From the NCBI GenBank assembly GCA_035634255.1, contig DASQDI010000089.1, positions 45,142 through 109,141 on the forward strand: DNA of 64,000 bases, written 5' to 3'. Every line of letters begins with the position of its first letter. The first letter of the stretch is position 1. The DNA is from Blastocatellia bacterium. GTDB taxonomy: Bacteria; Acidobacteriota; Blastocatellia; UBA7656. Below the pieces are notes generated by a model. The model saw nothing but the letters and a program-made list of their open reading frames with translations, had not been told where the DNA came from and did no database searches. Both the position numbers and the translations under genes were made by a program. Shown piece by piece: positions 1 to 51,410 of the stretch.

Positions 1-820
1 TCACCCCGACCACGCCGCTCTGGCCGATCAGAGGGGCGCACATCACCGACTGCACGCCCTGCACGGCGAGGGACGCCGAGCTCTCGAAGCGCTGGTCGGC
101 CTGCGCGTCGATGGAGAGCAGGGAGACGCGCTCGGACAACACGCGGTCGAGCACGGTCCGGCTGATGGTGAACCTCTCGTCCCTGCGTCCCCCGTCGCGG
201 AACTCCGTCGCGAACGGCGAGAGCTGGTCGCCATCTTTCAGCAGCACGATGAAGCGGTCGGCGGCCGTCGTGCGGAATATCATCTCGCTCACTTTTTTGA
301 ATATGTCCCCGAGCGAGAATACGGAGCTGAGCATCCGGCTCAGTTCGTAAAGGCGCGACAGCACCTCGGCCTTCACCTGAAGGTCCGCGATCTCTTCGCG
401 CGACAGGGCGGACGGGGGGTGCTCGCCCATGCGCCGGCCGGTGTCGTAGGTGATGTGCGCGGGGCTGCGCAGCAGAACGTTCTCGCCGATCTGGCCGTCC
501 TCGAACCGCACGTCGAGGTGCTCGGGCCGGTCTTCGAACCGGAGGGAGTAAGAGCCTATCGCGATCAGGTCTCCGTTGCGCAGCAGGGCCTCGTCGACGC
601 GCTGCCCGTTCACGAAAGTCCCGTTGGCGCTCTTGAGATCGACCAGCCTGCACGCCTGCTCGGACCACTGCACGATGGCGTGCACGCGCGACACCTGGCT
701 GTCGCTCAGGGAGATGTCGTTGACCGACAGGGAGCGCCCGATGCGGGTCTCCGGCCCCGACAGCTCGAAAGTCGAAACGTCCCCCGAACCGGCCTTCTTT
801 ATAATCAGCTTCGGCGGCAT
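1..820 (-). CDS. FHA-domain plus GAF-domain signalling protein, C-terminus runs off the window start (partial)
   Basis: Manual minus-strand translation from ATG at 820 (RBS GGAGGTGAG upstream; stop of the upstream gene at 830) gives MPPKLIIKKAGSGDVSTFELSGPETRIGRSLSVNDISLSDSQVSRVHAIVQWSEQACRLVDLKSANGTFVNGQRVDEALLRNGDLI..., a classic FHA pattern (GR...D..L.D..VSR.HA....L.DL.S.NGT.VNG). It is followed by a GAF-like segment (...FIVLLKDGDQLSPFATEFRDGGRRDERFTISRTVLDRVLSERVSLLSIDAQADQRFESSASLAVQGVQSVMCAPLI...). No stop before position 1. Absent from the supplied ORF track because it is open-ended. Confidence 0.6.
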   Translation of the reverse strand, partial: MPPKLIIKKAGSGDVSTFELSGPETRIGRSLSVNDISLSDSQVSRVHAIVQWSEQACRLVDLKSANGTFVNGQRVDEALLRNGDLIAIGSYSLRFEDRPEHLDVRFEDGQIGENVLLRSPAHITYDTGRRMGEHPPSALSREEIADLQVKAEVLSRLYELSRMLSSVFSLGDIFKKVSEMIFRTTAADRFIVLLKDGDQLSPFATEFRDGGRRDERFTISRTVLDRVLSERVSLLSIDAQADQRFESSASLAVQGVQSVMCAPLIGQSGVVGV

Positions 821-829
821 ACTCACCTC

Positions 830-1600
830 CTACCACTCATACTCGCGCCCGATCTCGGCGACAAATACCGGGGGGGCCTCAAGCCGCGCGAGCTGCCGCA
901 CTACCTGCTCGCGGTTGCTGGGCTTGATGTGTACGGCAAAGACCTGCGCCTCTCTTTCGAGCTTTGTGAGGTCGCGGGCCAGCGTCCGCGGGGTGAAGTG
1001 CCTCGACGCGGCCGCGAGCTCCTCAAGCTCGTCCGGGTAAGAGACATCGACGAAGATCGCCTTCAGCCGCTCGCACCGGTTGGCCGCCCGCCATATCGCG
1101 TCGGTCGTGCAGGTGTCCGAGGTGAACAACACGGAGGCCGAGTCGTCCTCGACCAGCAGCCCCATCGTCTCGACGACGTGGTTGACCGGTATGGGGGTCA
1201 CCTTAAGGCCCGCGATCCGCGTGGCCAGCAGCGGCTCAAGGGGGTGGAATTCGAGCGCGGGGCCGGCCCCGTTGGCGAGCGGAATCTTCTCGAAGTCCGG
1301 CCACACCTGATCGTTGAAGACGAATTCGCGCAGGGCGGAGATGACCGCGCGCGTGCCGTAGACCGTGATCGGCTCCGTCAGGCCGGTGAATGCCTCGGCT
1401 ATGAAGATGGGCAGCGAAGCGGTGTGGTCGCTGTGAGAGTGCGTTATCACGATGTGGCGGAGAGAGGCCATCTCCTCCGGCGCGAGCGCCAGCCCGATGC
1501 TGCCGCCGTCGACGGCCAGACAGTCGTTAACCAGAAAAGAGGTCAACGCCTGATGCTGCGCGCCGGATGCGATGCTGCTCGGCAAGAGTTTGATTTTCAT
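830..1600 (-). CDS. metallo-beta-lactamase-fold hydrolase, class II 3',5'-cyclic-nucleotide phosphodiesterase-like (CpdP/PDE1-like)
   Basis: 256 aa; HSHSDH (HxHxDH metal motif) in IVITHSHSDHTASLPIFIAE; N-terminal LTSFLVND..LAVDGGS resembles the class-II cAMP phosphodiesterase N-terminal signature; stop at 830 sits 10 nt before the next gene's ATG. Confidence 0.6.
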   Translation of the reverse strand: MKIKLLPSSIASGAQHQALTSFLVNDCLAVDGGSIGLALAPEEMASLRHIVITHSHSDHTASLPIFIAEAFTGLTEPITVYGTRAVISALREFVFNDQVWPDFEKIPLANGAGPALEFHPLEPLLATRIAGLKVTPIPVNHVVETMGLLVEDDSASVLFTSDTCTTDAIWRAANRCERLKAIFVDVSYPDELEELAAASRHFTPRTLARDLTKLEREAQVFAVHIKPSNREQVVRQLARLEAPPVFVAEIGREYEW

Positions 1601-1738: not shown

Positions 1739-4700
1739 CTAGCTAATCTTAACCCCGAGGCTTTCGAGAAACTTCGTCGGCTTCTCGCCGCCTATCAGGG
1801 CGAACACGTAATCGTTCGGGATCCGCGCCTTCTCCTCCCCCGTCTTCACGTCTTTCAGTACCACTTCGCCCTCTTTAATCTCTTTGATCTCGGCCCGAAA
1901 ATACACCTTGATCCTGCCCTTATCCATGCAGTCGTACACGTTCATCTTGTTGCCCAACTTCAGGTCGGCTTTGAAATCGCTGCGCACGACCAGAGTCACT
2001 TCGTTGTCGCGCGTGAAGGTCATGCCGTCCCCGTCGCGCCTGAGGCCGCACAGGTCGACCGCCGCCTCCACCGCCGAATTTCCCGCGCCCACGACGACGC
2101 ACTTCCGGCCGGAATAGTCGTCGGGGTCCGTGAGCCTGTACTTGACCTTGCTGTCCTGGTAGGAGGCGGTCAGGGTCTCCGGGAACTGGCTGCCGCACGC
2201 CGCACAGCGGACTTGCGCGCCCTGCCGCGCGGCCCCGCACTTCACGCAATGCTTCACAAGTCCCGGCTGAAGTTTGATCGTCAACTCTTCGCCCGGCACT
2301 CTGAGCTTCATGGGGGTCCCGCGGTTGCCTATCGCGAGGATCACCGCGCGCGCCTTGTAAGCGGAGGTATCTTTTAATTTGCCCTTCTCCGTGACGACTC
2401 GGAAGAAGCCCTGCTCGCGCTTGATGTCTTTGCAACTCTCCTGGTCGTGAATCGCGATGCCGTTTGACTTCATCGTCCGCATCCAGCTTTCGAGTATCTG
2501 CTCTTTCTTGTCGCCGGCGCCCGCCAGAGGCAGCCCGCCCCTCGCGTCCATCGTGTCGGGCTTGAAGTAGATATATTTGCCCGCCGGGTACGCCTCGATG
2601 GTGCTCACGACCCGGTCCTGCTCTACGAGAATGTATTTGAGGCCGCGCTGCCGCGCGATCACGGCGGCGGACAGCCCCGCGGGGCCCGCGCCGATCACGG
2701 CCACGTCGTAGTCGGCCTCGCCCGACGCCTCTCCGCGGAACGACTCGATTATGTGGTCCACGACCTGCGCGCCTTCGTTAACGGCGTTCTTGATCAGGGG
2801 CACTCCCGACACGTCCCCGATCAGGTAGATGCCATCGACGTTGGTCATGAATCTCTGGTCCCGCGCCGGGACCTTCCTCGGCTGGATAACCTTCGTGGTG
2901 TTGATGACGATGCAGGCTTTCGGGTTGGTGGGGCATTCGACCTGGCAGCTTGTGTCCTCCATGCATTGATCGATGGCGACCGAAGTGGCGATCCCGTTGA
3001 CGATGGCTAAGACATCGTGCGGGCACACTTCGACGCAGGCGTGGCAGCCTATGCAGAGCACGGGGTCTATGACCGGGTGAGGGTAGGCCGGGCCGACCTC
3101 TTTGAGCTTGTCGAGGTCAAGCGACCGGCTCCCGAGCATGCCGCTCGATTCGGCCTGCCCGTCATGTTCGGCCCGCGGCCTCACGGTTTTGAAGAGGCTC
3201 CTGCGGCGAACGGTCCCCGCGAAGACCGCCGCGAGCCCGAACAGAATGGGCGCGCCGACCAGCGCGAGCCATACCCTCCACGAGAGCGCGCCCATGCCCG
3301 AGATGAAGCCGCCCGCGGGCGCGTCGCGGTCCTGCCTTATCCGCCCGGCCTCTCCGACCCCCGCGAAGACGCGCGCGGTGGCGAGCCTGTCGGAGTCTTC
3401 ACCGGGGCCGCCCGCTCCCAGGGTGGTGAAGTAGGCTTTCAGCTTCCTCTCGTCGTCTTCGGCAGAGGCGAGGAATTTGGCGAGGTCTTCGCTCTGGCCG
3501 TGCTGCTGATGACAGCCGTTGCAATTCGCCTGCACGCGCTCGACGCGGCCCTCGGAGACCGAGGCGACCCCGTGGCACTTGGCGCACTCGTCGCGGGGCG
3601 AGTCACGATAGATGGCGCTGCCCCGCGTGCCGGAGTGGCAGTCTTTGCAGGTCATCCTGTCCTTCATCCTGCCCAGCTGGTGAACTCCGTGGAACTGGTC
3701 GTGGGGACTCAGAGTCGCCACGTATCCCGGCAGTCCCTTCCTCTTCACCTGCTCCGCCGAAAGCTTCCACTGCCACGTGCCGTTCGCTTTCGGGTAGCCG
3801 GTCACGCCCCCGTGCGGGATGGCGAGCGGGCTCCCGGCCCTCTCCCCGGTCTTTATCTCGTACGAGCCGTTGTGACAATTCGCGCACAGACCGTAGCTCA
3901 TCAACCCCATCTCGGAGTCGGTCCCCTCGTGCTCCGTGTGACAGGCCGTGCAGCCCATGCCTTCCCGCTCGTGCGCGTCGTAGATGGCGGGCCGGAATGC
4001 CTGCGTCGTGTGGCAGTCTCCGCACTTGTTCTGCATCAGAGAGGTGATGCCGTGGCAGCTCGAACACGACCCGCCATTCGGTTGCAGGGCGACGTTGCGC
4101 GCGGGCGGGGCCGCCCCGGACTGCGCGGACGCCGAGTGCGCGGCCGAGAGAGGCCCCGGCGAGTAGGCTTCGTCGAAGAGATAAAGCGCGCCCAGCGAAG
4201 CGGCGGCGACCGCTATCACGCCCCACGCGAAGTACGATTTGCGCCAGAGCCTTTTCAGGTCGAGTGTAGGCCGCCAGTTCCATTGCGCCTTGCCCACCCT
4301 CTGATTCTCCTTTGGGTGGAGCGGCGTGCGGGCGTTGATCTTGCCGGCCTCGCGCCTGCGCTTCTCCCAGAACACGTCGAGAGCCTGCTGATCGATTGAA
4401 GGCAGCGCGGTGTTGAGCAGGCCCCTGCCGGGGAGCCGTCCCGTGGGAGGAACCCCCGCCCGCTTCTTCGCGGAAGCCACGGGCATCCTGACCAGCACCG
4501 TCGCGCCCGAGCCGTCGTCGACCGGAAGGACCTTGCTCGGGGTGAGGCCGAGCGCGTGCAGTTCCAGCTCCCGCTCGACCGTTATGGCGAGCGCGTTCCC
4601 GAGACGACTCGCGGCCAGAACGTACGGCCCGATCTGAATTATGTCCCCTTCGGAGAGCGGGCTCTTCTCCACAAGCTCGCCATTGAGCACAGTGCCGTTC

Positions 4701-4915
4701 GAGTTCGAAAGGTTGAAGAGCCAGAACTCGCCGTTGATCTCTTTTATCCCGGCGTGCGTGCGGGAGACCGCGCGGTGGTTGAGGACGAGGTCGTTGCCTA
4801 TCAGGCGGCCGATGGTCAGCCCCTCGCTTTCGAGGGCCACGTCGTCGACGCCCCGGTCCTTGTCTTTCCTCTTAATGATGAAGTTACTCTTTGCGGACAT
4901 AGCATCCCACTTCAT
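1739..4915 (-). CDS. multidomain redox protein: N-terminal FHA domain, TM helix, heptaheme cytochrome c domain, TM helix, 2x[4Fe-4S] ferredoxin domain, FAD/NAD(P)-dependent pyridine-nucleotide-disulfide-type oxidoreductase domain
   Basis: ORF 1739..5002; start assigned to ATG at 4915, which forms an ATGA overlap with the TGA stop of the upstream gene (4912-4914). FHA: GRLIGNDLVLNHRAVSRTHAGIKEINGEFWLFNLSNSNGTVLNGELV...GDIIQIG. TM1 YFAWGVIAVAAASLGALYLF. Seven CxxCH motifs (CSSCH, CGDCH, CTACH, CANCH, CKDCH, CAKCH, CNGCH). TM2 WRVWLALVGAPILFGLAAVFAG. Fe-S: CIGCHACVEVCP and CQVECP. Rossmann folds DYDVAVIGAGPAGLSAA and KCVVVGAGNSAVEAAVDL, plus an inserted C4 zinc ribbon (CVKCGAARQGAQVRCAACG). Confidence 0.85.
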   Translation of the reverse strand: MKWDAMSAKSNFIIKRKDKDRGVDDVALESEGLTIGRLIGNDLVLNHRAVSRTHAGIKEINGEFWLFNLSNSNGTVLNGELVEKSPLSEGDIIQIGPYVLAASRLGNALAITVERELELHALGLTPSKVLPVDDGSGATVLVRMPVASAKKRAGVPPTGRLPGRGLLNTALPSIDQQALDVFWEKRRREAGKINARTPLHPKENQRVGKAQWNWRPTLDLKRLWRKSYFAWGVIAVAAASLGALYLFDEAYSPGPLSAAHSASAQSGAAPPARNVALQPNGGSCSSCHGITSLMQNKCGDCHTTQAFRPAIYDAHEREGMGCTACHTEHEGTDSEMGLMSYGLCANCHNGSYEIKTGERAGSPLAIPHGGVTGYPKANGTWQWKLSAEQVKRKGLPGYVATLSPHDQFHGVHQLGRMKDRMTCKDCHSGTRGSAIYRDSPRDECAKCHGVASVSEGRVERVQANCNGCHQQHGQSEDLAKFLASAEDDERKLKAYFTTLGAGGPGEDSDRLATARVFAGVGEAGRIRQDRDAPAGGFISGMGALSWRVWLALVGAPILFGLAAVFAGTVRRRSLFKTVRPRAEHDGQAESSGMLGSRSLDLDKLKEVGPAYPHPVIDPVLCIGCHACVEVCPHDVLAIVNGIATSVAIDQCMEDTSCQVECPTNPKACIVINTTKVIQPRKVPARDQRFMTNVDGIYLIGDVSGVPLIKNAVNEGAQVVDHIIESFRGEASGEADYDVAVIGAGPAGLSAAVIARQRGLKYILVEQDRVVSTIEAYPAGKYIYFKPDTMDARGGLPLAGAGDKKEQILESWMRTMKSNGIAIHDQESCKDIKREQGFFRVVTEKGKLKDTSAYKARAVILAIGNRGTPMKLRVPGEELTIKLQPGLVKHCVKCGAARQGAQVRCAACGSQFPETLTASYQDSKVKYRLTDPDDYSGRKCVVVGAGNSAVEAAVDLCGLRRDGDGMTFTRDNEVTLVVRSDFKADLKLGNKMNVYDCMDKGRIKVYFRAEIKEIKEGEVVLKDVKTGEEKARIPNDYVFALIGGEKPTKFLESLGVKIS

Positions 4916-7347
4916 TCGGCCGCGTAATAGATCACCTGAATTATGTGAACGATCATGAGGGCGAGCATAATGGAAGTGGTCGCCACATGCGGCGGCAGCC
5001 ACACCTTCAGCAGGCGGTGTACGTAGATCAGCGCGTCGACCCTCCTCAGGGCCGCCGCCGATTCGACCGCGCGCAGAAGCTTCCGCCTGTCCCTCTCGCT
5101 CTCCAACCTCCCGGCTTCACCCTCGAACTCTCCCTTCGCCAGGTCGAGCGCCCGGTCGGGGTCCTCGCGCTTCGTGTACTGTTTGAGCAGGTACCCGAAA
5201 GAGATGAACCGCGGAATCACTCGCCTCTTTATCAGGTGCGAAACCTGCTCCGACGTATCCGAGGCAAGCTCCATCAACTCTTTCTGCAACTCCTGCCGGC
5301 GCACGAGCAGGTCGTCGAGCAGGAGCGGAGCGCCTTCGATCTTCGTGAGCAGTCGCGGGCCGAGGTAATAACAGGCGATCCCGAACAGGCCGGTGAGTAT
5401 CACGAGATCGAAGCTGATCATGAGGGCCGTCGTGAGCATCCCCCCGGAGTCCGTGCCGCCGTGGAGGAAGATCATCACCGCGCCCAGTACCCCCAGGTAA
5501 GAATGCGCGAGCATCCAGTACCTCAGAGCGCCCGCGCGCTTCTTGTATATCTGCCGCCTCACCGGGTAGAGCATCGCGAAGAAGATCGCCGCGAGCCCCG
5601 CGAGGCCCGTGACCCACCGCATGTTGAGAAAGCCCCAGAGCCGCTCTCCGAACCCGTAACGGTCGAGGCCGAAGACCGCCGCCGCCGACAGCAGCAGGAG
5701 GCCGAGGATTCCCACGGCATGCGTGAGGCGGCGGGGCGGGTCCGACCTGTGAATGTTGCGGCCATAGGCGTGCCTCGGGTCGAGAACGAGCAGCCCCTCG
5801 ATCTCCCCGATCTCCGTGAAGTACTCGCGCGGGTTGATGCGCGCCAGAGCGCCGGTTGGGCAGTTCTCTTCGCAGCTGTAGGCGCGCCGCCTCGCGGTCG
5901 GAGGGTTGAGCGAGGCGCGGTCGCTGCACAGGTTGCACTTGACCGCGAGCAGGTCGTCGGTCGCTTCGACCGGCGGCGGGAGCGGGTCGAGCCTGATCCG
6001 CAGCAGGTCTTTCAAGCGCGCGGCTAAGCCCATCTTCGACGAAGCCGGGGGCCTGCGCGAGGTCATCGAGATCGCGTCGTAAGGGCACTGGGCCGCGCAG
6101 TCCCCGCAGCCGATGCAGGTCGATGTGTTTATGTCGATCTGCCCCCCGGTGAAACGCCCGATGGCCCCGGTCGGGCACCCGGTCAGGCACTCCGGGTCCT
6201 TGCAATGCATGCAGACTTCGGGCGAAAGGAGGCTCTGACGCGCGCCCGCCTTCGGGGCCTTCAGCCGCGTTATGTGGATGCCTCGTCGCGTGAGCCGCGA
6301 CTGCCCGTGAATCTTATGGCAGGCCAGGGAGCAGTTGCCGCACCTGACGCAGAGGTCCATGTCCATCACGAGCAGGTTGGTCGCGTCCACCAGCCCCGTG
6401 TCTATCAGGTCTTCGCGCGCCGACATCACCGCGGAACGCACTCCCGGAGCCTGTTTCGTGTCTTCGAGCGGGAACGGCGGCGGGGTAAATCGCGCGAGCT
6501 CCGAGGAGAGAGACTCCCTGACCGCGGGCGTTTGCCGGAGCGGGTCAATGGGTATTTCAATGACTTCGGCGCGGGCCATGATCGTGACTGTGTAAGGCCA
6601 CAGGGAGTTTTTCATCACCTCTTCCAGCCCGAAGCAGAAGCCGCTCCCAAGGAAGTCCCGGACCTCGGAGCCCCCGGCCTGTCTGCTCCTGCGAATCCAC
6701 CCTTCCTTGATTATGTACACCCGATCCGCCGGCAGGCCCTCGTGAAAGAGGACGTGGTTCTTGGAGTAGATTTTGAATGACGAGAGATTCTGAAGCTCGG
6801 GCGTCAGTTCCGGCCTGAGGCCCGTAACGAGCTTCAGGTCCTCGATGGCCGCATTCCTGCCGTGGAGCCGGTAAGTCTTGTCGAGCGTCTCCCCGAATTG
6901 CGGGAGCTTGCGAAGGAGCCTGAGGGCCGGGCGCTGCACCTCCAATATATCGGCAGGCGCGAGCCGCGAAGATTTGACCGTGGCGTTGCGAGGCACGCCC
7001 GCCAGCACCGACATCTCGCCGAACTGCGCCCCCGGCCTCAGCTCCGCGACCTTAAGCTCCCCGTCGCCGGGCGTGTTGACCAGCACGTCGGCCGAGCCCC
7101 TGACCAGCAGGTAGAAGGTATTGCCGCCCCAGTCGCCTTCCCTGACCACGACCTCGCCCGGCTCGTAAGTCAGCAGGCGCACGTAAGGGCCGACCTTCTT
7201 CCCCCCGTAGTTGCGCCCGTAAACGATCACTTCGAGGTCCAGCTCGTAATTGAAATGGCCGTCGTTCATCGAGAGCAGCTCGGACACGGAAGGGAGGTCC
7301 CTGATCGCGTCGAGCACCTCGCGGCGACTCTTATGTTCAAGCGGCAT
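4912..7347 (-). CDS. tandem cyclic-nucleotide-binding domain protein fused to a 4x[4Fe-4S] ferredoxin-like module and a C-terminal polytopic membrane domain with conserved His
   Basis: 811 aa. Two CAP-family cNMP-binding domains (FGEMSVL...RNATV; FGLEEV). Cys clusters CVRCGNCSLAC, CMHCKDPECLTGCP, CIGCGDCAAQCP, CNLCS...CEENCP. About five hydrophobic helices at the C-terminus with His (MLAHSYLG, IFLHGG, MIVHIIQ). Confidence 0.85.
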   Translation of the reverse strand: MPLEHKSRREVLDAIRDLPSVSELLSMNDGHFNYELDLEVIVYGRNYGGKKVGPYVRLLTYEPGEVVVREGDWGGNTFYLLVRGSADVLVNTPGDGELKVAELRPGAQFGEMSVLAGVPRNATVKSSRLAPADILEVQRPALRLLRKLPQFGETLDKTYRLHGRNAAIEDLKLVTGLRPELTPELQNLSSFKIYSKNHVLFHEGLPADRVYIIKEGWIRRSRQAGGSEVRDFLGSGFCFGLEEVMKNSLWPYTVTIMARAEVIEIPIDPLRQTPAVRESLSSELARFTPPPFPLEDTKQAPGVRSAVMSAREDLIDTGLVDATNLLVMDMDLCVRCGNCSLACHKIHGQSRLTRRGIHITRLKAPKAGARQSLLSPEVCMHCKDPECLTGCPTGAIGRFTGGQIDINTSTCIGCGDCAAQCPYDAISMTSRRPPASSKMGLAARLKDLLRIRLDPLPPPVEATDDLLAVKCNLCSDRASLNPPTARRRAYSCEENCPTGALARINPREYFTEIGEIEGLLVLDPRHAYGRNIHRSDPPRRLTHAVGILGLLLLSAAAVFGLDRYGFGERLWGFLNMRWVTGLAGLAAIFFAMLYPVRRQIYKKRAGALRYWMLAHSYLGVLGAVMIFLHGGTDSGGMLTTALMISFDLVILTGLFGIACYYLGPRLLTKIEGAPLLLDDLLVRRQELQKELMELASDTSEQVSHLIKRRVIPRFISFGYLLKQYTKREDPDRALDLAKGEFEGEAGRLESERDRRKLLRAVESAAALRRVDALIYVHRLLKVWLPPHVATTSIMLALMIVHIIQVIYYAAE

Positions 7348-7438: not shown

Positions 7439-8317
7439 TCAGAAAGGGAGCGCCCCCGTGTGGCACTTCGTGCACACGGCTTCGCGCGCGCGGACGTGAC
7501 AACTCCAGCAGGCCGAGCTGTGCCTCTGCCCGCTCGCGGTGCTGATCTCCATAATGTCCGGGCGCGTCGCGTTCCCGCCCGCGTCGGAAGTCTTGTGGCA
7601 CCTCGCGCAGTCGACCTTTCCGGTGTGCGAAGCGTGCCTGAAATTATAGAGCCTGAACGCGGACCCGAGGCCGCGACTGCCTTTCGACGCGGTCGCGGCC
7701 TCCGAGTGGCAGACTCTGCACTCGCTCAACTGCTGGCCCGCCTGATGCGCGTGGCAACTGTAACACTGCTCGTGCGCGGGGAAGCTGGCGTTCACGCCCG
7801 CCGGGTCGAACCGATGGCAGCGGTCGCACTTGCCCGCGTCCGCGTCCGAAGGCATCTTCGACGGGTCGAGGTGGGTCTTATGCGAAAACCCTTTCAGCCC
7901 GAACTCGCCGAGTTTTTCCGGGAAGCTTATCAACTTCCCGTCCACCGGGACCACGTGACAGATCACGCAAAGCTCGCTCGTGGACGAGCTCATGTCCTGC
8001 ACGTGACACTCGATGCATGCCCTGTGGCCCGGAAATTTCGGGACCACATCGTTGTCGGCCCGCTCGTGGCAGGCGTTGCAGTCCTGCGCCCTGGTCCTGT
8101 GCTCGGGCCGGTTGTGATCGAAGGGCGACCTCTTCTCAATCGTCTTCGAGACGACGACGTTGAAGGGCGATTCTACAGACGCCCGCTCGGGCTGCGGCGA
8201 TTCCGAAGGCGCGGGCTGCGTGCGCTTCGCCTCCCTGCACGCGAGCAGGCCGAGCATCAGCGACACGGCCGCGACCGCGACCACGCGCTTGATTTTTATG
8301 GCCCTGTGATTCCGCAT
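7439..8317 (-). CDS. multiheme cytochrome c (about 9 CxxCH), probable lipoprotein
   Basis: 292 aa; signal/lipobox-like LLACREA; CNACH, CIECH, CVICH, CDRCH, CYSCH, CRVCH, CARCH, CWSCH, CTKCH. Confidence 0.85.
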   Translation of the reverse strand: MRNHRAIKIKRVVAVAAVSLMLGLLACREAKRTQPAPSESPQPERASVESPFNVVVSKTIEKRSPFDHNRPEHRTRAQDCNACHERADNDVVPKFPGHRACIECHVQDMSSSTSELCVICHVVPVDGKLISFPEKLGEFGLKGFSHKTHLDPSKMPSDADAGKCDRCHRFDPAGVNASFPAHEQCYSCHAHQAGQQLSECRVCHSEAATASKGSRGLGSAFRLYNFRHASHTGKVDCARCHKTSDAGGNATRPDIMEISTASGQRHSSACWSCHVRAREAVCTKCHTGALPF

Positions 8318-8332: not shown

Positions 8333-9250
8333 TCACCGCTTCGCGAGGCTGTCCAGAATGCTCGCAGGCAGAACGTCGGGGAGCCCGACTTTGCCGTTGT
8401 GACACTGCCGGCAATGCTCCGGCTCCGGCAGCCTTATCTCGTCGAGCCGCGCGGCCCGTGTGACGGCTCGGTGACACTCCGAGCACAACGCGTCCGCGGC
8501 CTTAACGGCTCGGAACTCGCTCTTCTTTTTCGGCCTTATGTCGTAATCGTGGTCCGCGTGCCTGAACTCGCGCACGACCCCGAACAGGCGCGGGGCCTGC
8601 GGATAGCCGAGCCTGTGACAGCCGGCGCAGTCGAACATAGCGGGCCTGACGAGGGGCTTTTCATCATGGCACCTGAAGCAGGCCGCGTGGCCCGTCTCGA
8701 TGGTCATGTCTTCCGCCCGCGCCGCCGCTGGCTCGACCCTCCTGTGGCACTCGGCGCACTTGTTGCTCTCGTTCGCATTCAGGCCGACGGGCGACGGTTT
8801 GAGGTGCGACGGGTGCGAGAAGTCCATGCCGAAGTCGGTCCTGAGGTTCCTCTTCGGGAACTCGAAGAGCGCCGACTGGCTCCTCGACACCGCGCGCCCC
8901 TCGTGGCAGATGCCGCAGAAAGCCACCGGCTTGATGAAGAACTCGGCCGCGAAGTTGTGACACGGGGTGCAGGCGAGGTGCCCCGGAAATCCCTTCACGT
9001 CTATCTGAGCCGGGGAGACGGAGTGGCACTTCGCGCAGTCGAGCGCCCTGTGGCCCTTCGTCTCGTGAGGGAAGCTCGCCGCCGCTCGCGAGGCGGGCGA
9101 CTGCGCCCGAGCCTCGGACGACGCGGGGTTGAAATAGAGCAGAATCCCGCACAGACAGGCCAGAGCCAGCGTCCCTGTCTTTACCGATGTCTTTATCGAT
9201 CTGACGCCCACCTCTCCCTCCGGGTGCCGCGGTCCACCTCCCGAAATCAT
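8333..9250 (-). CDS. multiheme cytochrome c (about 8 CxxCH), secreted
   Basis: 305 aa; hydrophobic N-terminus; CAKCH, CTPCH, CGICH, CAECH, CFRCH, CAGCH, CSECH, CRQCH; its ATG (9248-9250) overlaps the TGA of the upstream gene (9247-9249). Confidence 0.85.
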   Translation of the reverse strand: MISGGGPRHPEGEVGVRSIKTSVKTGTLALACLCGILLYFNPASSEARAQSPASRAAASFPHETKGHRALDCAKCHSVSPAQIDVKGFPGHLACTPCHNFAAEFFIKPVAFCGICHEGRAVSRSQSALFEFPKRNLRTDFGMDFSHPSHLKPSPVGLNANESNKCAECHRRVEPAAARAEDMTIETGHAACFRCHDEKPLVRPAMFDCAGCHRLGYPQAPRLFGVVREFRHADHDYDIRPKKKSEFRAVKAADALCSECHRAVTRAARLDEIRLPEPEHCRQCHNGKVGLPDVLPASILDSLAKR

Positions 9251-9705
9251 CGGGCCGCCGAGACCGTCTGGTGACAGCCGTTGCAGGTCGTCGGCCCTTT
9301 ACTCGAAGCCCGATGGCACGCGATGCAGCTATCGTGAAAAGCCCTCTCCGCGAATACTTCGTCAAAGTCCCTGTTCTTAGGGTTGCCCTTACTGCCCTCG
9401 GCCCTGTGGCACGCGCCGCACTTCGACAACTGCGGCACCCCGAAAGGGTCGCGCGCGTGATGGCATCCGACGCATGCGGCCCCGGCCTTCGATTGATAAG
9501 GGGCCCGAGGGTCGGGGTTCATACGGGCCTCGTGCGCTTTGTGGTTGAACAGCACGACGCCCCGCCTGCCATTCATGTCGAGCCTGAACACCTTCGCGCC
9601 GCCCTGCCCGAACGATTCCGTCCGCGCGACCGGGACGGACGGGGAGATGGAACTGAGGGCGAGCCCGAGGGCGTAGACGACGATGACGGCCAGCTTCAAA
9701 CCCAT
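9247..9705 (-). CDS. small periplasmic tetraheme cytochrome c (c3/c7-like)
   Basis: Start placed at MGLKLAVIVVYALG (ATG 9703-9705, GGAG RBS upstream) inside ORF 9247..9825; CVGCHH, CGACH, CIACH, CNGCH; paralogous to the N-terminal domain of the 13842..16154 product (FNHKAHE...CVGCHH vs FDHKKHE...CVGCHH). Confidence 0.8.
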   Translation of the reverse strand: MGLKLAVIVVYALGLALSSISPSVPVARTESFGQGGAKVFRLDMNGRRGVVLFNHKAHEARMNPDPRAPYQSKAGAACVGCHHARDPFGVPQLSKCGACHRAEGSKGNPKNRDFDEVFAERAFHDSCIACHRASSKGPTTCNGCHQTVSAAR

Positions 9706-9724
9706 CCGAATTCTCCGAGGCGAT

Positions 9725-12700
9725 TCACCTCTTCGCCCTCTTCCTCTGCCTGCGCCATTGCATGACGCTGATCGCCGGGGGCACAAGGATGAAGAAGAGG
9801 TTGAAGAGGTCGGGTGATCGGTCATGCAATCTTTCGGGCGGCGCGGCCTGCTCGATCTCTTCCAGACGCTCCTCCCCCCCGCCCGGCTCCTTCGCCCGCG
9901 ACGAGTCGCCCGAGCCCGCGGGCGGGCCGTAGAAATCGCGAACGTCTCTGTTCTGCTTTCGATTCTGGTCCCGAATCTCCGGCACCGCGTAGGGTTCGGG
10001 CCTGCCCCCGACGGCCTTCAGGTACATTCGCCGCATCTCCGACAGGTTGAAGGGCCGGGACCCCCTGCGCCCGAACACCGCGAGCTGGTTGCCGCTCTCA
10101 TCCGCCGCCCGGTCGCGGTCCAGCCCCTCGGAGACGGCGAGCGCCGGGGCGTGCGTGTGGTGCGTCGCGATGAGTCGGGGCGACGGCTTCGGGCTGAAGC
10201 CGTAATGTCCGGGCGTGTCTTCGGGCGACGTGAGCTGCAGGACCCGCAGGCCGTTGCGCCCGTCGGCGACGTAGGCGAACAGGCTCACGTTCGTCATCCC
10301 GACTTTAACGTCGCGCGCGTCGTTGATCTTCCCGCCCGCGTCGTAAAGTTGCTCGACGCGAGGTCGCTCCGGCTGCTCTATGTTGATGACCGCGAGCCCC
10401 TGCCGGCCCGCCGCGACGTAGGCGTAGGTGCGGACCAGATAAATGCTGTTGGCTTCGGGGAGCGGGACGGTGGCCGAGGCGATGGGCCGCGCGTCGGCGG
10501 GCGCGGTCACGTCGATGACCTTCACCCCTTCCGAATCGCACACGAATGCGTAGCGGAACTGGACCTGCACCGCGCGCGGCCGGTTTAGGAAAGGCGCGCC
10601 GACCTCTTTCACCACCCGCGGCTTCAGCGGGTCGTCGAGGTCGATTATCACGAGCCCCCTGTCGCAGGTGACGTAGGCGTGCGTGCCCGCGATGGTGATG
10701 CTGCTCGCGCCGTTGAGCACCCCGCTCGGGTTCCACGTCAGCGCGCGCCTGAGAAAATTATTTCTCGGGTCGCCGTCGAGCAGGGTCGCCGCGCCCACGA
10801 GCACGAGCCCCTCGTGCCTGTCCGTGACGTAAATGTAGCCGTAGAGAGGATGGATCGGCTGCCCGTCGTCGCGGTTGATGGCCTCTTCGTTTTCCGGCAG
10901 GTGCCGCCTCGTCGGGTCCACGGCCATCGTAGAAGGCGAGGCCACCGAGGTCGCGTACTTCGTGTCCACGTAAAACCTCTGGCCGAGCGGAGAGAACGGG
11001 GCCGTGGTTATCCGTTCGGAAAAGCCCTTCTGGTCTATGTTGGCAACGTCGTAGACCTTGAGCCCTCCGCGGCCCGTCGCCGCGTAAAGGTACTCGCCCC
11101 GGAGTTGCAGGCTCAGCACTTCGGTCTTCCTGTCCCGCAGGGGCGTCAAGGCGTTCAGGATGTCGTTGCCCGGATGCTCGTAGAACTCCTTCAGCTCTTC
11201 GTGATTCTCTTTGTGCTTATTATATTGGTCGGGGAAGGCGAGGCCGTGCAGGTAGCTCCCTATGACCGCCTGCGGCTCGTCCCTTTCGGTGACCACCACG
11301 CCCGCGAACCCCGCGTCCCCCAGGGCGACGTAAGCGAACCGGCCTATGAAGTTGTAGAAGTTGGTCCCCTGCATCAGGGTCATCGCCATGAAAGCGTTGT
11401 TGTCGCCCGCGGCCGACACATGGCAATCGGTGCAGCCGCGCGTCTCGCGGGTGCGGACCGTGTGCGGGAAGTGGGGGCTGAACGCCGTGCCGCTGTAACC
11501 TTCCGCCGAGACCGTCTGCTGCTGCGAGTATATCCACTCGCGGTTCTGATTCTGCGAGCTGACGAGCACGGCGCAGGCGGAGCGGATGGGCGCGACCCTC
11601 CGACCCGTCACCGAGCCGTCGCGCCCGAGCAGGAACACGTCGTCGCGGAGGGTCTGGAAGTTATAAGAGGTGTAGTTGCGCAGGTCCTTCTCGCCCTCGT
11701 TGTGCAGCATCGGCATCTTCTCGTTGGCTTCCATCTTGAGGTGGCAGCCGAAGCAGCTGGGGGTCCACGAGGTGTGGCAACTGTAGCAGGTCATGTTCGA
11801 GTTCGCGTGCGCGAGCGAGCCCTCGCCTTCGGGCGCGCGGCCCCACGTCTTCCCGTCCTTGAGCAGGGTCTTCGCGAGCGCCGCGACCTCGTTGTAGTCG
11901 GGGTTCCCCTCCGAGACCGTGTCGGCCACCTGCTTAACTTCCCAGACCTTCGGGTTCCCCTTCTCGTCCGTCGCGACCGCCGCGCGCTGGAACAGCCTGC
12001 CCTCCCTCTTGAAGAACCGGTCCTTGCCCGAAGGGGTGTCGCGGTACTCGATCATCCGGTTGCCGCCCGCCGCGGCGGAGGTCCGCGCTTCGACCGAGGT
12101 GGGGTCGGCGCGCTTCGTTATCGTGCCGTGACAATCGACGCAGTCGATCTCGATGGCGTTGCGCACTTCGCCGTAGAGCTTCCCGTTCCCGTGATTGTCC
12201 TGCTTGAAGTGACAGTCGACGCAGTGCATGCCCTTTTCGAGGTGGATGTCTTTCAGGTGGACGGGCACGCCTTCGCGCGAGGCCGGGTCGTCGGTCGTCT
12301 CCCTGACGGCCCTCCGCAATTTCTCGTTCGTCACTTCGCCGACGACCTTGCCTCCGTGGTCGAGCAGGTTGCCGTGGCGGTCTTTCTTATAAGCCGACCT
12401 GAATACCCAGCCGTGGCCCGTGAAGTCCGCGAACTGGGTGTGTTTGAGCTTCGGGTTCACCTGCTCCGTGAGGCCCTTCAAAAACTCCACGTCCCCCCAC
12501 CTGCCGCGCAGGGCCGACTCTTCCGGGTTGCGCTTCAGAATCTGCTGCGCCTGCTCGGGGCTGAGGGGCTTGCGCTCGCCGGCCTTCGGGTACATCTTGT
12601 CGCCGTCGGTCTCAAGGTCCCACCACGTGTAGCCGAAGTATGAATTGACGACGAGGGTGCCGGGGTGCATGTGGCAGACCACGCACTGGCTCGAAGGGAT

Positions 12701-13828
12701 CGCGCGCGTGAACTGGTGCCTTATGGGGTGGCCCGGCTCGTCCTTCGGGATCGTCGGGTCTTTGCTGTGGCTGAGCCCCGTGTGGCCGTATTGCGAGTAA
12801 GGCCCCGAGTGGAACTGGTCGCGGTCGTTCGCGTAGACGACGTGGCAGGCCGTGCAGCCGCTCGAACGGTAATCGCCCGGCTGGTCGTTCGTGCCCATGA
12901 ACGAGAGCATCGGGTCGAGCAGCCTCGTCTTTTGAAGCCCGAGGAAAACGGGGTCGGTCCTGAGCAGGGTCCCGAGCCCGCGCGGGCTGAGCAAATTCTG
13001 AGTCGGGCGGCCCGGCGGCTCTTCCGTTATGGGGAGCCCGACCTCCGCCGCCTTGCGCCCCCCGCGCTCGAACGTGCGGAGTATGTTTCCCATCTGGGTG
13101 ATCTCCCACCGCGGGAGCGGGTCGAGGAACGGGAGCACGCCCTTTTGCTTAATATCCTGGGCGGACGGCTGCGGGACGGTCTGAAGGCGCTGGGGGCGGC
13201 CCTCGGAGTCGTAGCTCTCGCCGAACCTGTAATTCTTGAGCGGGTACGACCCGTTGTTATAAAGCGCCGCGCCCCAAAGCATCGAGCCCGTAGTCATCAT
13301 GCTCTTGCCGACGTTGTGCACGTCCTCGGTGTGGCACTCGCTCGTGCCGCAGCTCAGGCGCGCCACGCGCAGGTCGCCGGGGTTGATGAAGCGGATGAAC
13401 TCGGGGCTCTCTTTAGTCAAAAGGGTGTTGGACCGCTCGGGATTCGCGGAGCTCTTCCAGGCTTCGGGGAAGCGCGGCGGGACGTGGGCCTTCTGCTTCG
13501 CCTCGGCGTACGCCGAGGCGCCGGGGCCCGCGCCCTGGGCGAGTCGCGCGCCCGCGTCCCCCCCGTGGCAGTCGGTGCAGCCGATGTCGATGGCCCCGCC
13601 GTGCATGTCCTCGATGCCCGCGTGACAGTCTAGGCAGCCCGCGCTCCTCCGCATGGCCTCTTCGGCCGTCGTGTTCCAGAGCCGGGGCCCCTGCGTTTGG
13701 GGATTTTGTGAAGCGGTTCTCGAATCGGCGAGGACGGCGAACGAGTAGCCGCAGGCCAGCGCCAGTATGAGCGACAGCTTCAGGGTGCTTTTCCGCCAGA
13801 CCAGTTTCATTGGGCCGCCCATCTCCAT
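9725..13828 (-). CDS. giant secreted multiheme cytochrome c (about 9 CxxCH plus one CX4CH) with C-terminal LVIVD-repeat beta-propeller and hydrophobic/polybasic tail
   Basis: 1367-aa ORF (alternative start MKLVWRK at 13810); signal peptide [17 protein letters not shown]. Heme motifs CLDCH, CTDCH, CGTSECH, CTACH, CVVCH, CVDCH, CVDCH, CYSCH, CFGCH, CTDCH. Repeats [13 protein letters not shown] / [17 protein letters not shown] / [14 protein letters not shown] / [15 protein letters not shown] / [15 protein letters not shown] / [15 protein letters not shown]-terminus ...[27 protein letters not shown]. Confidence 0.85.
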
Positions 13829-13841
13829 CTCCCGCCGCGAA

Positions 13842-16154
13842 TCAATAGGTGAATTTCAGGCGGACGAATACCGAGTACAACGATTTCGGTTTAGCGCCGC
13901 ACCCCGAGCCCCCGCAGCTTGAGCTGTAAATCTCTTTGAAGCCCGCGTCGGGCACGAGCGACGAAAAGCCCGCCGACACGATGGCGTTCTCGTTTAAAAA
14001 GGGCCTGTAGATGAACCCGAGCCCGTAATCGAGCCCGATGCTCCTGTTTATCCCCGGCTGAAACAACAGCTCTTCGAGCGGCTCCGGGTGGTGGAAGTGA
14101 AGGTAATTCACGTTGAGTACGCCCTTCAGCTTCGGGGTGAGCTCCGCGTCGAGGCCCAGGTTGTAGAGGAACAATCCGGGGTTGACGAAATTGGACTGCC
14201 CTTCGGTCTTGCTACTGCGGAGGCTCGGTATGAGGCTCTCGGGCTGCACGAGCCCGACGCCCGTCTGCGTCAGCCTTATGGCCTGACTGTTCCAGAAGCT
14301 GAACTTCCCGCCCGCGAACTCGGGGAAATCGAAGATCGCGTCGAAGCCCCTCGCCTTGTCGTCGAATGGGTCTTTGTCGCCCGAGGCGAAGAAGAACGAG
14401 CCCTTGAACCTGAGCCAGTCTCTATCGAGCGACAGTTCGAGCGCGGCCATCTGCGCGTTGATGTCCGTGCGGCGGCCCGCTATCGGGTTGCGCGTGTCGT
14501 GGCCTATGACCTGATAGAGTGCGTGATTGATGTTAAGGCGGCCTATGTGCCCGTCCCCGGCCCAACCGAAATAGCTGGACTTGATCCCGTGCGGCGCAAC
14601 GTCCCCGACGGGCGCGGGCCGCACTAGAAAATCGTTCTCGTCGAAATGGCGGCTCGGGCGGTCATTATTGTAGTGATAGCTGAACTGAGTTGTGTAGCCC
14701 TTCCACCCCGTGTCCTGCCGGTAGAGGTTGGCGATGAAGACGGTCTGGTCCCGGAACTCGCCCAGGTTGACGCGCGTGTTCAACTCGCTGTTGGTGTCCT
14801 TCTCAAGCATGTAGAAGTACGCCGCGTTGAAGTTGTAGCGGTTGTTAGCGTGCTGCCCGAACAGCCTGACGCCGAGGTTGAAGTCATTAAATATGAAGCC
14901 CCGGAAATCCGAGACGAGCGGCTGAATGCCCGCGCGGATGAAGGTCGAGTCGAAGAACGGGCTGCCGCCTCCGACGCTCCCGCTCCCGCGCAGGAAAGGG
15001 AGCAGGCGGGTCGTGTCTCCGAGGCGCACTTCCCCGAAGGCTTCCTGAAAGCCGACGTAGCCGTCCGTGCGGTTCGCGCCCCTGCGCGGGTCGATGTTGA
15101 CTATGCCGTTCTCCTGAGTGTTGAGCAGGTTGATGTTGAAGTTGGGCGTGAACCTGAACCTGTAGTCCGCCGGCTTGAAGGCCGCGTCGCCATGGAACAG
15201 CTCGACGGAAAGCAGGAAGTTCTGCCTGAAGAACAACTGCCCCCCGCGCCCGAAAAACTCGGAGCTGTCGGGCCTCTGGCTGCTGATGTCGCTCGGCACG
15301 GGCACGCGCCGCGCGTTGAAGAACGTGTCGCTTTCCGCCGTGACGACGAGGAAGTTGTGCTGGCCGAACAGAGGGTAATCTCCCTTGAGCACGTTCTGGC
15401 GGTACGGGTTGTACCAGCGGCCTTCCTCGAATCTCGGGTCCGAGGGGAACCCGATGCGCCAGCGGTCGGTGACCGTCACCGCGTCCGAAGACTCCTGCTC
15501 GGGCGCGGGAATCCTCGACGGCCCCGCGTACCCGCGAGGCGGGTCAACCGGAGTCTTTATGATCGCCCCGGCCGACGGCTCCGTGCCGCTTTCCAGCGGC
15601 GCCTCGGCGGGTTCATCGAGCGGAGTCAAGGGCTCGTCCGGCACGGTTACGGGCGTGAGATTCGCCTCCCGGTCGTGGCATTCGGAACAGCGCGTGAAGC
15701 CGACGTTAGTAAATCGCTCGTTAGAGGCCTTCATGTCCGAAGCCTTGTGGCACCCTATGCAGAGGCGGTGGAAGGCGTCCCTCGAATTCAGGTCGAAGCC
15801 TTCCCTGTCGTCCGGGTTGCGCGGGTCGCCCAGGGCCCCGTGGCAGGAAGTGCACTTCTGAAACTGCCCCGCTTCGGTTATGTCTTTGACCGTGTGATGG
15901 CACCCGACGCACGCGAGACTTGCGGGGGCTTTGTGAGGGGAGGCCGGGTCGGGATTCAGGACCGCTTCATGTTTTTTATGGTCGAATAAGACGAGGCCCC
16001 TGCGGCCCTGAACGTCGAGCCTTATCGGGAAGGTCTTCTGCGCCGCCCGCTCCGCCTGCGCGGGCTCGGGGCGGGCGAACGCGCGCGATTCAAGCGTCAC
16101 GGGCACGAGCAGGGCCATCGCGTACAGGGCGACTATTGTGAGCTTGAGTGTCAT
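13842..16154 (-). CDS. porin-cytochrome fusion: N-terminal tetraheme c3-like domain joined to a large outer-membrane beta-barrel
   Basis: Start set at [19 protein letters not shown] (ATG 16152-16154, AGGAAGGA RBS) within ORF 13842..16223; CVGCHH, CTSCH, CIGCH, CSECH; then ~580 aa rich in Gly/aromatics with alternating hydrophobic pattern, ending ...[13 protein letters not shown] (beta-barrel-like terminal strand with aromatic end). Confidence 0.8.
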
Positions 16155-16406
16155 CCGGTCCTTCCTGCCCGCGGGACAGCCAAATAGTGACTGCCATACT
16201 GAATGAAGGGATCCAAAAATCAAAACGATCAGGAATAGTTGAGAAGATCGCTTCTTGAAATAGTTGCTTTACGTTCCCTAAGAGCCCGGCTTCTGCGAGT
16301 CCGCGCCAATATAGCACAACGATTCATCAAAGTTAAGCAGCGGGTTCGGCGCGCTCCGGCGCAGCGATACTTTTCGCTCTACAAAATGATCGCGGTTGCA
16401 TGTAAT

Positions 16407-50648: not shown

Positions 50649-51410
50649 GTGAACAGGGAGGACATAAAGAAGCTGATCGAGGAAGTGCGCGCGGGCCGCA
50701 TGGGCGCGGACCAGGCCGCGGATAAATTGTCGCACCTCCCTTACGAGGACATCTCCTTCGCGCGCGTGGACCACCACCGCGAAATGCGCGTCGGGTTCCC
50801 GGAAGTGATCCTCGGCGAGGGCAAGACCGTCGAGCAGATATTCAAAATATCCGAGCGCATCCTGCTCAACAGCTCGAACCTTCTCATCTCGCGCACGTCA
50901 AAGGAGGTGTTCGAAGCGGTCTCGAAGATCGCCCCCGACGCCGAATTCAGCAGGGACGCGCGCATGGTCTCGGTCATCCGCGACCGCGCGGAGCGAGGGG
51001 AGGGGACGATAGCCGTCATCTCCGCGGGCACGTCGGACATACCCGTGGCGGAGGAGGCGGCCATCACCGCGACCGCCATGGGCAACCGCGTCGCGCGCGT
51101 CTACGACGTGGGGGTCGCCGGCATTCACAGGCTGTTCGGCGCGCGGGCGGAGTTCGAATCGGCGCGGGTGATCATAGTCGTGGCGGGGATGGAAGGCGCG
51201 CTCCCGTCGGTCGTGGGCGGCCTCGTGCCCGTGCCCGTCATCGCCGTGCCGACGAGCATAGGCTACGGGGCGTCTTTCGGCGGGCTGGCGGCCCTGCTCG
51301 GCATGCTGAATTCGTGCGCTTCAAACGTGACCGTGGTCAACATCGACAACGGCTTCGGCGCGGGCTTCGTGGCAAGCCTCATTAATCGGAAGCGGCCCGG
51401 AGGCGGGTAA
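50649..51410 (+). CDS. larB: LarB-like (PurE-related, COG1691) nickel-pincer cofactor biosynthesis carboxylase/hydrolase
   Basis: 253 aa, GTG start; PurE-like core [17 protein letters not shown]...[18 protein letters not shown]...[13 protein letters not shown]. Confidence 0.7.

Follow-up and report, generated by a model that had tools for sequence, protein, structure and literature searches.

In a 64,000-nucleotide stretch of a genome assembled for a Blastocatellia bacterium (GenBank GCA_035634255.1, contig DASQDI010000089.1, positions 45,142 to 109,141; hereafter the window), one gene joins two cyclic-nucleotide-binding (CNB) domains, a four-cluster ferredoxin module, and a His-bearing membrane domain in a single protein of 811 residues, which we call the target. 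On balance, we lean toward reading this protein as the regulated, membrane-spanning center of an electron-export module encoded by two genes. With the product of the following gene (the partner), it would form a valve for electrons passing from NAD(P)H to the periplasm, under the control of cyclic nucleotide monophosphates (cNMPs) and phosphothreonine. The positions of all features are collected in Table 1.

Cyclic-Nucleotide-Binding and Iron–Sulfur Domains

An initial annotation, prepared from the DNA letters alone, had placed two CAP-type cNMP-binding domains at the N-terminus of the target. When the two halves of the protein were scanned separately, both CNB1 and CNB2 exceeded the gathering threshold of the Pfam model PF00027 (cNMP_binding; 27.5 bits), and neither segment was left with a generic fold assignment. 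Residue conservation was then scored on an alignment of 90 full-length family members that share 24–87% identity with the target. The phosphate-binding cassette of CNB1, FGEMSVLAGVPRNATV, follows the canonical Gly-Glu...Arg-x-Ala-[Thr/Ser] pattern. Gly110 is present in all 90 members, Glu111 in 86, Arg120 in 88, Ala122 in 69, and Thr or Ser at position 123 in 85. The proposal of two nucleotide-binding domains stands in part: the fold occurs twice, but CNB2 lacks the ligand-binding Glu and Arg. In the target's clade, the cassette glycines of CNB2 are kept, Leu241 replaces the Glu, and Trp250 replaces the Arg; across the family, the column of Trp250 holds Arg in 48 of 90 members and Trp in 29. 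Because of these two substitutions, CNB2 is probably not a nucleotide site, and of the two domains only CNB1 looks, from its residues, able to bind a nucleotide. Neither a helix-turn-helix (HTH) family nor a channel domain appears among the Pfam matches of the target, and the identity of a CRP/FNR regulator was rejected because an HTH is missing.

The four ferredoxin-type Cys clusters proposed for the central part of the protein were recovered by Fer4 hidden Markov models. The 16 Cys fall into the groups C333/336/339/343, C379/382/387/391, C411/414/417/421, and C471/474/492/496, and each is kept in at least 89 of the 90 family members. The best NCBIfam matches of this module are DsrO, ArrB, FdhB, TtrB, DmsB, HybA, and NrfC. 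Matches to such four-cluster subunits have E values of 1e-11 to 4e-17, all far below the equivalog cutoffs, the top match (DsrO) reaching 62.3 bits against a cutoff of 200. Across the eight operon genes, no Pfam family of a molybdopterin catalytic subunit or an NrfD-type anchor was found. With the equivalog cutoffs failed and the usual partners lacking, a quinol dehydrogenase subunit of the complex iron–sulfur molybdoenzyme (CISM) type was rejected as the primary reading of the target. No signal peptide is present, which points to a cytoplasmic location for the Fe–S module.

A Putative Two-Heme Cytochrome b

A hydropathy scan detected four strongly hydrophobic segments in the membrane domain, to which AlphaFold2 adds a fifth, His-bearing helix. 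The AlphaFold2 model of this domain, built on a diverse alignment of 77 sequences, comprises five transmembrane (TM) helices, with a charged helical insert of ~115 residues between TM4 and TM5. The insert starts with an invariant P664...E671 'TKIEG' motif, in which Pro664 and Glu671 are present in 90 of 90 members. Exactly four His residues of the domain are invariant (His615, His629, His787, and His801, each in 90 of 90), while His543 and His777 are conserved in the close clade only. The five helices and the conserved His anticipated as possible b-heme ligands were both recovered. The same four His are also invariant in two further alignments (A2 and A3), in which stand-alone versions of the domain are included. 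They make up two H-x13-H pairs, H615/H629 and H787/H801, on two helices, as expected of the His pairs of a two-heme cytochrome b. A spacing of 14 positions is that of the bis-His ligands of two stacked hemes in cytochrome b, ferric-reductase domains, and prokaryotic b561.

Arg and Lys are plentiful ahead of TM1, in the loop joining TM2 to TM3, and in the stretch that follows TM4. Taken with the missing signal peptide, this places the CNB and Fe–S parts in the cytoplasm, and the loop pattern predicts that TM3 and TM5 run in parallel from the cytoplasm to the periplasm. His615 and His787 would lie near the inner face of the membrane and His629 and His801 near the outer face, each such pair ligating one of two stacked b hemes.

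Individual Pfam scans of 29 diverse members of the domain returned only three recurrent families, all sub-threshold: DUF4405 (13 of 29, with a best E value of 4e-5), Ni_hydr_CYTB (9 of 29), and Ferric_reduct (8 of 29). We take all three to be heme-b families of the two-heme cytochrome b clan. Profile matches of the C-terminal family to sequences in the Protein Data Bank (PDB) were limited to coiled-coil proteins (ATP synthase b, 14-3-3) aligned through the charged insert, and these were rejected as noise. No well-known membrane family at the Pfam threshold accounts for the architecture. We conclude that the membrane domain is probably a divergent, unmodeled branch of the two-heme cytochrome b fold, with predicted heme binding.

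Partner Flavoprotein and Proposed Electron Path

The ATGA overlap that the initial annotation had described between the target and an FHA/cytochrome/reductase gene is present, as the TGA stop codon of the target (4914..4912) overlaps the ATG (4915..4913) that opens the open reading frame (ORF) of the partner. A second in-frame ATG, also a possible start, lies 15 nt downstream of the first; depending on which of them is used, the two genes overlap by 4 nt or are separated by 11 nt. In distant relatives, too, the two genes are tightly joined, with anything from 19 nt of overlap to 3 nt of spacing. In the partner, two TM segments bracket seven CXXCH motifs; the heme loop must be periplasmic and the flavin and ferredoxin parts cytoplasmic. 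The closest NCBIfam model of the flavoprotein is of the YpdA/TrxR type, with a score below the family cutoff. A CxxC...CxxC segment (HCVKCGAARQGAQVRCAACG), inserted in the Pyr_redox domain at residues ~887–912, may be a zinc ribbon or an extra metal site. It is missing from the partner homologue of the distant locus L081, where the BLAST alignment has a 43-residue gap (L numbers denote related loci here and below).

In the proposed mechanism, the thioredoxin-reductase-type flavin domain of the partner would oxidize NAD(P)H, and the electrons would reach the four clusters of the target by way of the partner's 2x[4Fe-4S] ferredoxin domain. The electrons would then cross the membrane via the two b hemes of the target and arrive at the periplasmic heptaheme loop of the partner. 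Onward flow, in the target's clade, would lead to ~34 further c hemes and a candidate outer-membrane component. One input to the switch would be a cNMP bound to CNB1, at a level set by the FHA-GAF-cyclase and the phosphodiesterase (PDE) encoded in the operon. The second input would be phosphothreonine, placed by a kinase and read by the FHA domains of the reductase and the cyclase. In the putative cNMP 'gating' of the redox chain, CNB1 might reposition the Fe–S module relative to the ferredoxin domain of the partner or alter oligomerization. The outward direction is favored because an inward path would run uphill in potential and would be opposed by the membrane potential. Carrying electrons outward from NAD(P)H would use reducing power and depolarize the membrane, as NADPH oxidases do, which would call for a tight switch.

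Operon Surroundings

The operon supplies candidate genes for both sides of cyclic-nucleotide turnover. The target had been said to fit with a PDE-like gene further along the operon; this gene matches PDEase_II well above the cutoff (Table 1), although the NCBIfam matches of its product are weak, and beyond it lies the gene for an FHA-GAF-class III cyclase. The cyclase gene is cut by the window edge, and its full-length orthologues at L001:6485-8101 and L015:16492-18198 combine FHA, GAF, and Guanylate_cyc domains, the window fragment being 75% identical to the L001 orthologue over its visible part. In ~24 related loci, the cyclase gene directly follows the PDE-like gene, so the operon holds both a synthase and a hydrolase for a cyclic nucleotide.

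Upstream of the target, five multiheme cytochrome genes together encode ~34 c hemes. The product of the last of these, a 793-residue protein, may be a cytochrome–porin fusion and is a candidate for the terminus of the chain at the outer membrane. A mechanically called ORF of 714 residues (16239..18383, +) lies immediately upstream of the cytochrome operon on the other strand; its HbpS-like (heme-degrading/GlcG) match is confined to the last ~40 residues, and the true gene within it is probably much shorter. The other 811-residue ORF of the window (56636..59071, +) is unrelated to the target. Selected window ORFs of at least 250 residues, scanned up to position 51410, encode housekeeping proteins (UvrB, PurC, Pol I, and TPR proteins), with no Ser/Thr kinase and no further signaling genes for the module among them.

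Table 1. Features of the target, its partner, and the surrounding operon. Positions are those of the window; aa, amino acid residues of the encoded protein.
Feature	Positions	Strand	Evidence
Target gene, 811 aa: CNB1, CNB2, 4x[4Fe-4S], five-TM putative di-heme cytochrome b	4912..7347	-	ORF; Pfam, NCBIfam; full-length homologues at 62–87% identity
CNB1, canonical CNB domain, aa 60–139	6931..7170	-	PF00027, 51.1 bits, E 1.4e-13
Phosphate-binding cassette of CNB1, aa 109–124, FGEMSVLAGVPRNATV	6976..7023	-	Counts in 90 relatives
CNB2, CNB fold with degenerate cassette (L241 for Glu, W250 for Arg), aa 193–272	6532..6771	-	PF00027, 51.9 bits, E 7.8e-14; residue counts
Four-cluster ferredoxin module, aa 326–505, 16 Cys in four CxxCxxCxxxC-type groups	5833..6372	-	Fer4 models; NCBIfam; Cys counts
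Membrane domain, aa 537–810: TM1–TM4, cytoplasmic helical insert, TM5 (predicted)	4918..5739	-	AlphaFold2, pLDDT 89.3, pTM 0.81; hydropathy
TM3, aa 608–630, with H615 and H629, 14 residues apart	5458..5526	-	Both His in 90/90; also invariant in A2 and A3
Charged helical insert between TM4 and TM5, aa 665–782, predicted cytoplasmic	5002..5355	-	AlphaFold2 secondary structure
TM5, aa 784–810, with H787 and H801, 14 residues apart	4918..4998	-	Both His in 90/90
Partner gene, 1058 aa: FHA, TM, seven CXXCH, TM, 2x[4Fe-4S] ferredoxin, Pyr_redox_3 FAD/NAD(P)H domain	1739..4915	-	Pfam, NCBIfam; CXXCH and TM scan
Metallo-beta-lactamase-fold, class-II-cAMP-phosphodiesterase-like gene	830..1600	-	PF02112 (PDEase_II), 57.1 bits against a cutoff of 23.7; kept in 25 related loci
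5' part of FHA-GAF-(class III cyclase) gene, cut by the window edge	1..820	-	FHA and GAF in the visible 273 residues
Nine-heme c-type cytochrome, lipoprotein-like N-terminus	7439..8317	-	Nine CXXCH; Cytochrome_C7 and QrcA-like matches
Eight-heme c-type cytochrome	8333..9250	-	Pfam; CXXCH scan
Tetraheme cytochrome c3-like protein	9247..9825	-	Pfam; CXXCH scan
Multiheme cytochrome, 1367 aa, C-terminal LVIVD repeats, ExtM-like segments	9725..13828	-	Nine CXXCH and one CX4CH (9–10 heme motifs); Pfam, NCBIfam
Protein of 793 aa: N-terminal tetraheme c3 domain (four CXXCH, aa 105–183) and ~600 aa with no Pfam match	13842..16223	-	With the cluster in 20 loci

Distribution and Rearranged Forms

A protein search with the target returned 2653 matches, the best 120 of which are all full length, at 62–87% identity, and carry generic names only. 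Scanning one genome per species, we found relatives in at least 452 species genomes. The locus counts that follow rest on the best 80 of these 452 genomes, which are metagenome-assembled genomes (MAGs) of Blastocatellia, Pyrinomonadaceae, or other Acidobacteriota. The partner follows the target in essentially all of the 80 loci with enough sequence, and it does so in distant loci as well. The cytochrome cluster accompanies the pair in 20–37 of the 80 loci, the PDE gene in 25, and the cyclase gene in ~24, all of these being closer relatives. In nine loci (L002, L004, L007, L019, L025, L043, L048, L054, and L060), an Acidobacteriota-type operon at 55–69% identity is titled 'uncultured Clostridia bacterium' or 'Heliomicrobium sp.'; these are probably mislabeled bins. 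Two of the nine, L060 and L004, share contig CAZJQQ010000008.1, on which two target–partner pairs lie ~6 kb apart in one genome. The two copies are 55% and 64% identical to the window protein, and the cytochrome genes lie between them.

Fused, split, and rearranged versions of the two-gene core are found in MAGs of Acidobacteriota, of Myxococcota type, and of Planctomycetota. Using a distant member as the query, we found the architecture in MAGs labeled Deltaproteobacteria and Labilithrix, while a third homology search (profile A3) returned mostly gene fragments of the same Blastocatellia clade and added no taxa. The membrane domain by itself recruits 1305 cluster representatives; some are proteins of 730–950 residues with the same cNMP and Fer4 architecture, and many are stand-alone proteins of 265–320 residues. 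In the split form of L081 and L082, a 499-residue cNMP-Fer4 gene overlaps a 285-residue gene whose product is 31% identical to the C-terminal domain of the target (E 1e-32), and an FHA-Fer4-Pyr_redox gene and a divergently transcribed cyclase gene come after the pair. The Planctomycetota locus L084 encodes NAD_binding_1 and Fer2 proteins, followed by a cNMP-FHA-Fer4 fusion, a 280-residue membrane protein, a multiheme cytochrome, and an LVIVD protein (L084:19699-23699) at the end of the cluster. Here, an FNR-type NAD_binding_1 protein and a Fer2 protein take the place of the Pyr_redox donor. At L087, Pyr_redox, cNMP, and Fer4 domains are fused in one protein. The Rosetta-stone fusions Pyr_redox+cNMP+Fer4 (P0351) and cNMP+FHA+Fer4 (P0356), together with the splits, suggest that the CNB/Fe–S unit, the cytochrome b, the NAD(P)H flavoprotein, and the FHA domain form one functional unit.

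Ser/Thr kinase genes adjoin several distant modules (L083:8037-10004, L085:739-1977, L086:3881-5173, and L084:1-3309), the L083 kinase gene overlapping the target homologue by 4 nt. These neighbors fit a role of the FHA domains as phosphothreonine readers. With a cyclase gene next to the PDE-like gene, and with cyclases or Ser/Thr kinases flanking distant homologues, the cyclic-nucleotide link that the PDE-like gene had first suggested is supported more strongly.

Comparison with Known Systems

In the literature, we found a single description of this parts list, the ptdABCDEFG cluster, which is found in marine Alphaproteobacteria and other groups along with periplasmic multiheme cytochromes and a porin (bioRxiv 10.1101/2023.11.21.568154). 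PtdC is an FAD/NAD(P) oxidoreductase, PtdD a tetraheme protein, PtdE a cNMP-binding protein with 4Fe-4S clusters, and PtdF a ferric-reductase-like membrane protein; what the cluster does 'remains completely unknown', according to the authors (bioRxiv 10.1101/2023.11.21.568154). In its domain content, our operon matches this list as published, and a homologous split arrangement occurs at L081. The arrangement differs in that one 811-residue protein combines PtdE-like and PtdF-like parts here, and the partner unites the flavoprotein, ferredoxin domain, heptaheme loop, and FHA domain. A PDE and an FHA-GAF-cyclase are added to the operon, which is carried by soil Acidobacteriota, whereas the published hosts are marine Proteobacteria, Nitrospirales, or Planctomycetes. 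Judged by its parts list, the target looks like a PtdE–PtdF-type fusion from a different phylum with a more elaborate regulatory set. The initial annotation had held the protein to belong to no described family. No experimentally characterized family is known, but thousands of homologues are deposited under generic names and an apparent split form has been named (PtdE/PtdF), so the family looks partly described already, with a function stated to be completely unknown.

Four better-known groups invite comparison with the target. NADPH oxidases and other ferric-reductase-domain enzymes (NOX5, SpNOX, STEAP, and MsrQ-Fre) have six TM helices, whereas the target has five, and its C-terminus ends in the membrane. 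Here, six Fe–S clusters are interposed, the flavoprotein is a TrxR/YpdA-type (Pyr_redox_3) domain on the partner polypeptide instead of a C-terminal FNR-like domain, the acceptor is a c-type multiheme domain, and no Pfam threshold is reached. The proposed working of the target would nonetheless be the same, lengthened by an Fe–S wire. The CISM four-cluster subunits (DsrO, NrfC, HybA, DmsB, ArrB, and QrcC) have the same spacing pattern of four Cys groups, but the target lacks a Tat signal and a molybdopterin or NrfD partner, and its Fe–S module is predicted to be cytoplasmic and is fused to CNB domains and a putative cytochrome b. With the Tmc and Hmc complexes of sulfate reducers it shares the logic of a periplasmic multiheme cytochrome c, a membrane cytochrome b, and a cytoplasmic Fe–S protein in series, and the NCBIfam models TmcA, HmcA, and HmcB weakly match the neighboring cytochromes and the Fe–S module. 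In those complexes, by contrast, the cytoplasmic Fe–S protein is of the HdrD/CCG type, flavoprotein and CNB or FHA regulation are lacking, and the presumed flow is opposite. By their defining features, the target is a member of neither the NOX/ferric reductase nor the Tmc/Hmc families. The CNG, HCN, and MloK1 channels, the PKA R subunit, and CRP have in common with it the canonical cassette of CNB1 and the tandem CNB arrangement, whereas in the target the CNB unit would act on a redox chain, not on an ion pore, a kinase, or an HTH.

Alternative Explanations

Several results weigh against a regulated electron export. The last 290 residues of the target have no Pfam match even at E ≤ 10, and no cytochrome b model reaches threshold. 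In a fold comparison, the membrane domain matched di-heme cytochromes no more strongly than generic helical bundles, and a Foldseek search of the C-terminal model against the PDB returned nothing at E < 0.3. A full-length AlphaFold2 model of the target, made from a shallow alignment of 18 sequences at 62% identity or above, has a pLDDT of 57, with the Fe–S and membrane parts below 50; contacts between the CNB and redox domains are not resolved in it, and it was discarded for domain arrangement. The support for outward flow and for NAD(P)H as the donor comes from thermodynamic reasoning together with sub-cutoff YpdA/TrxR homology. The clade at 52–55% identity and some distant loci lack the multiheme and outer-membrane cluster, so the path cannot end outside the cell in every case. 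Lastly, many CNB folds of the CRP/FNR type bind ligands other than cNMPs.

This last point bears on an alternative that we consider quite improbable, in which the CNB domains bind no cyclic nucleotide and serve as structural or dimerization modules or respond to another ligand, as in FNR, CooA, NtcA, and CprK, while the PDE and cyclase serve other targets. It is well established that many members of the CRP/FNR superfamily do not bind cNMPs, CNB2 has lost the cassette Glu and Arg in the target's clade, and the PDE-like protein, with its weak NCBIfam matches, would also be compatible with generic metallo-beta-lactamase hydrolases or RNase Z. Yet the Gly-Glu...Arg-x-Ala-[Thr/Ser] pattern of CNB1 is kept in 85–90 of 90 members across phyla, which is not expected of an unused site, and cyclase genes accompany the module in the fused clade and, independently, in a split form. 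A quinone-linked enzyme is a rather unlikely alternative. The di-heme domain would then reduce menaquinone or oxidize menaquinol, like di-heme succinate:quinone reductases, NarI, and FdnI, and the pair would be a regulated NAD(P)H:menaquinone or quinol:cytochrome c oxidoreductase. A four-cluster Fe–S protein with a di-heme b anchor is the classic quinone-coupling module of CISM enzymes, the best NCBIfam matches of the target include DsrO, ArrB, NrfC, and HybA, and the invariant Glu671, Pro664, and Arg597/Arg598 near the cytoplasmic membrane face could form a quinone site. Against this, no named quinone-interacting family was matched, and the operon has no catalytic molybdopterin or NrfD-type subunit. 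The seven periplasmic c hemes that the partner carries on two TM helices would sit directly beside the membrane cytochrome b, which makes a direct relay from heme b to heme c the simpler path.

The density of signaling parts (two CNB domains, FHA on two proteins, GAF, cyclase, and PDE) could also be taken to mean that the Fe–S/heme chain is a redox sensor rather than a bulk conduit. It would report on the redox poise of the periplasmic cytochromes or of NAD(P)H, form a signaling device with the cyclase, PDE, and kinases, and use the CNB domain to close a feedback loop. Kinases and GGDEF or His-kinase genes surround distant loci, and some loci have no cytochromes beyond the partner's own heme loop. 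We give this possibility little weight, as six Fe–S clusters, two b hemes, seven c hemes, and a flavin dehydrogenase would be very heavy equipment for sensing, the target itself carries no HTH, kinase, or cyclase as an output domain, and ~34 more c hemes with a candidate outer-membrane protein share its operon in the target's clade, which is typical of a flux-carrying pathway. Least convincing, and in our view very unlikely, is a NOX-like oxygen reductase, with O2 as the terminal acceptor at the outer heme b or the heme c loop for regulated production of superoxide or peroxide, or for scavenging as by CybB. The partner always puts a multiheme c domain beside the b hemes, and its flavoprotein fold differs from that of NOX dehydrogenase domains and is located on a separate polypeptide.

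Implications

If electron export under dual control is the function of the pair, a further and bolder proposal follows, which we put forward only tentatively. The module may be the first transmembrane electron-transfer chain on which a cyclic nucleotide acts as a direct, protein-level switch. The gate of the Fe–S/heme wire would be a CNB domain, its signal would be set by an FHA-GAF-cyclase and a PDE dedicated to it, and phosphothreonine, read by FHA domains, would add a second input. The operon would thus be a self-contained 'redox valve' that releases NAD(P)H electrons to periplasmic or extracellular acceptors on demand, bypassing the quinone pool, in aerobic soil Acidobacteria and in relatives from other phyla. 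Known control of extracellular electron transfer by cAMP is transcriptional, for example through cAMP–CRP in Shewanella. A CNB sensor inside an electron wire would, if true, constitute a new class of CNB effector and a new, fast means of controlling respiration-like electron flow.

The work also delimits, by four invariant His, a putative cytochrome b family for which Pfam has no model. For Ptd-type clusters, reported from marine oxygen-deficient zones and nitrite oxidizers, it offers a concrete, testable function. As the module is carried by abundant, poorly cultured soil lineages, it may bear on the handling of redox stress by Acidobacteria and on the question whether these bacteria interact with Fe/Mn minerals or humic substances.

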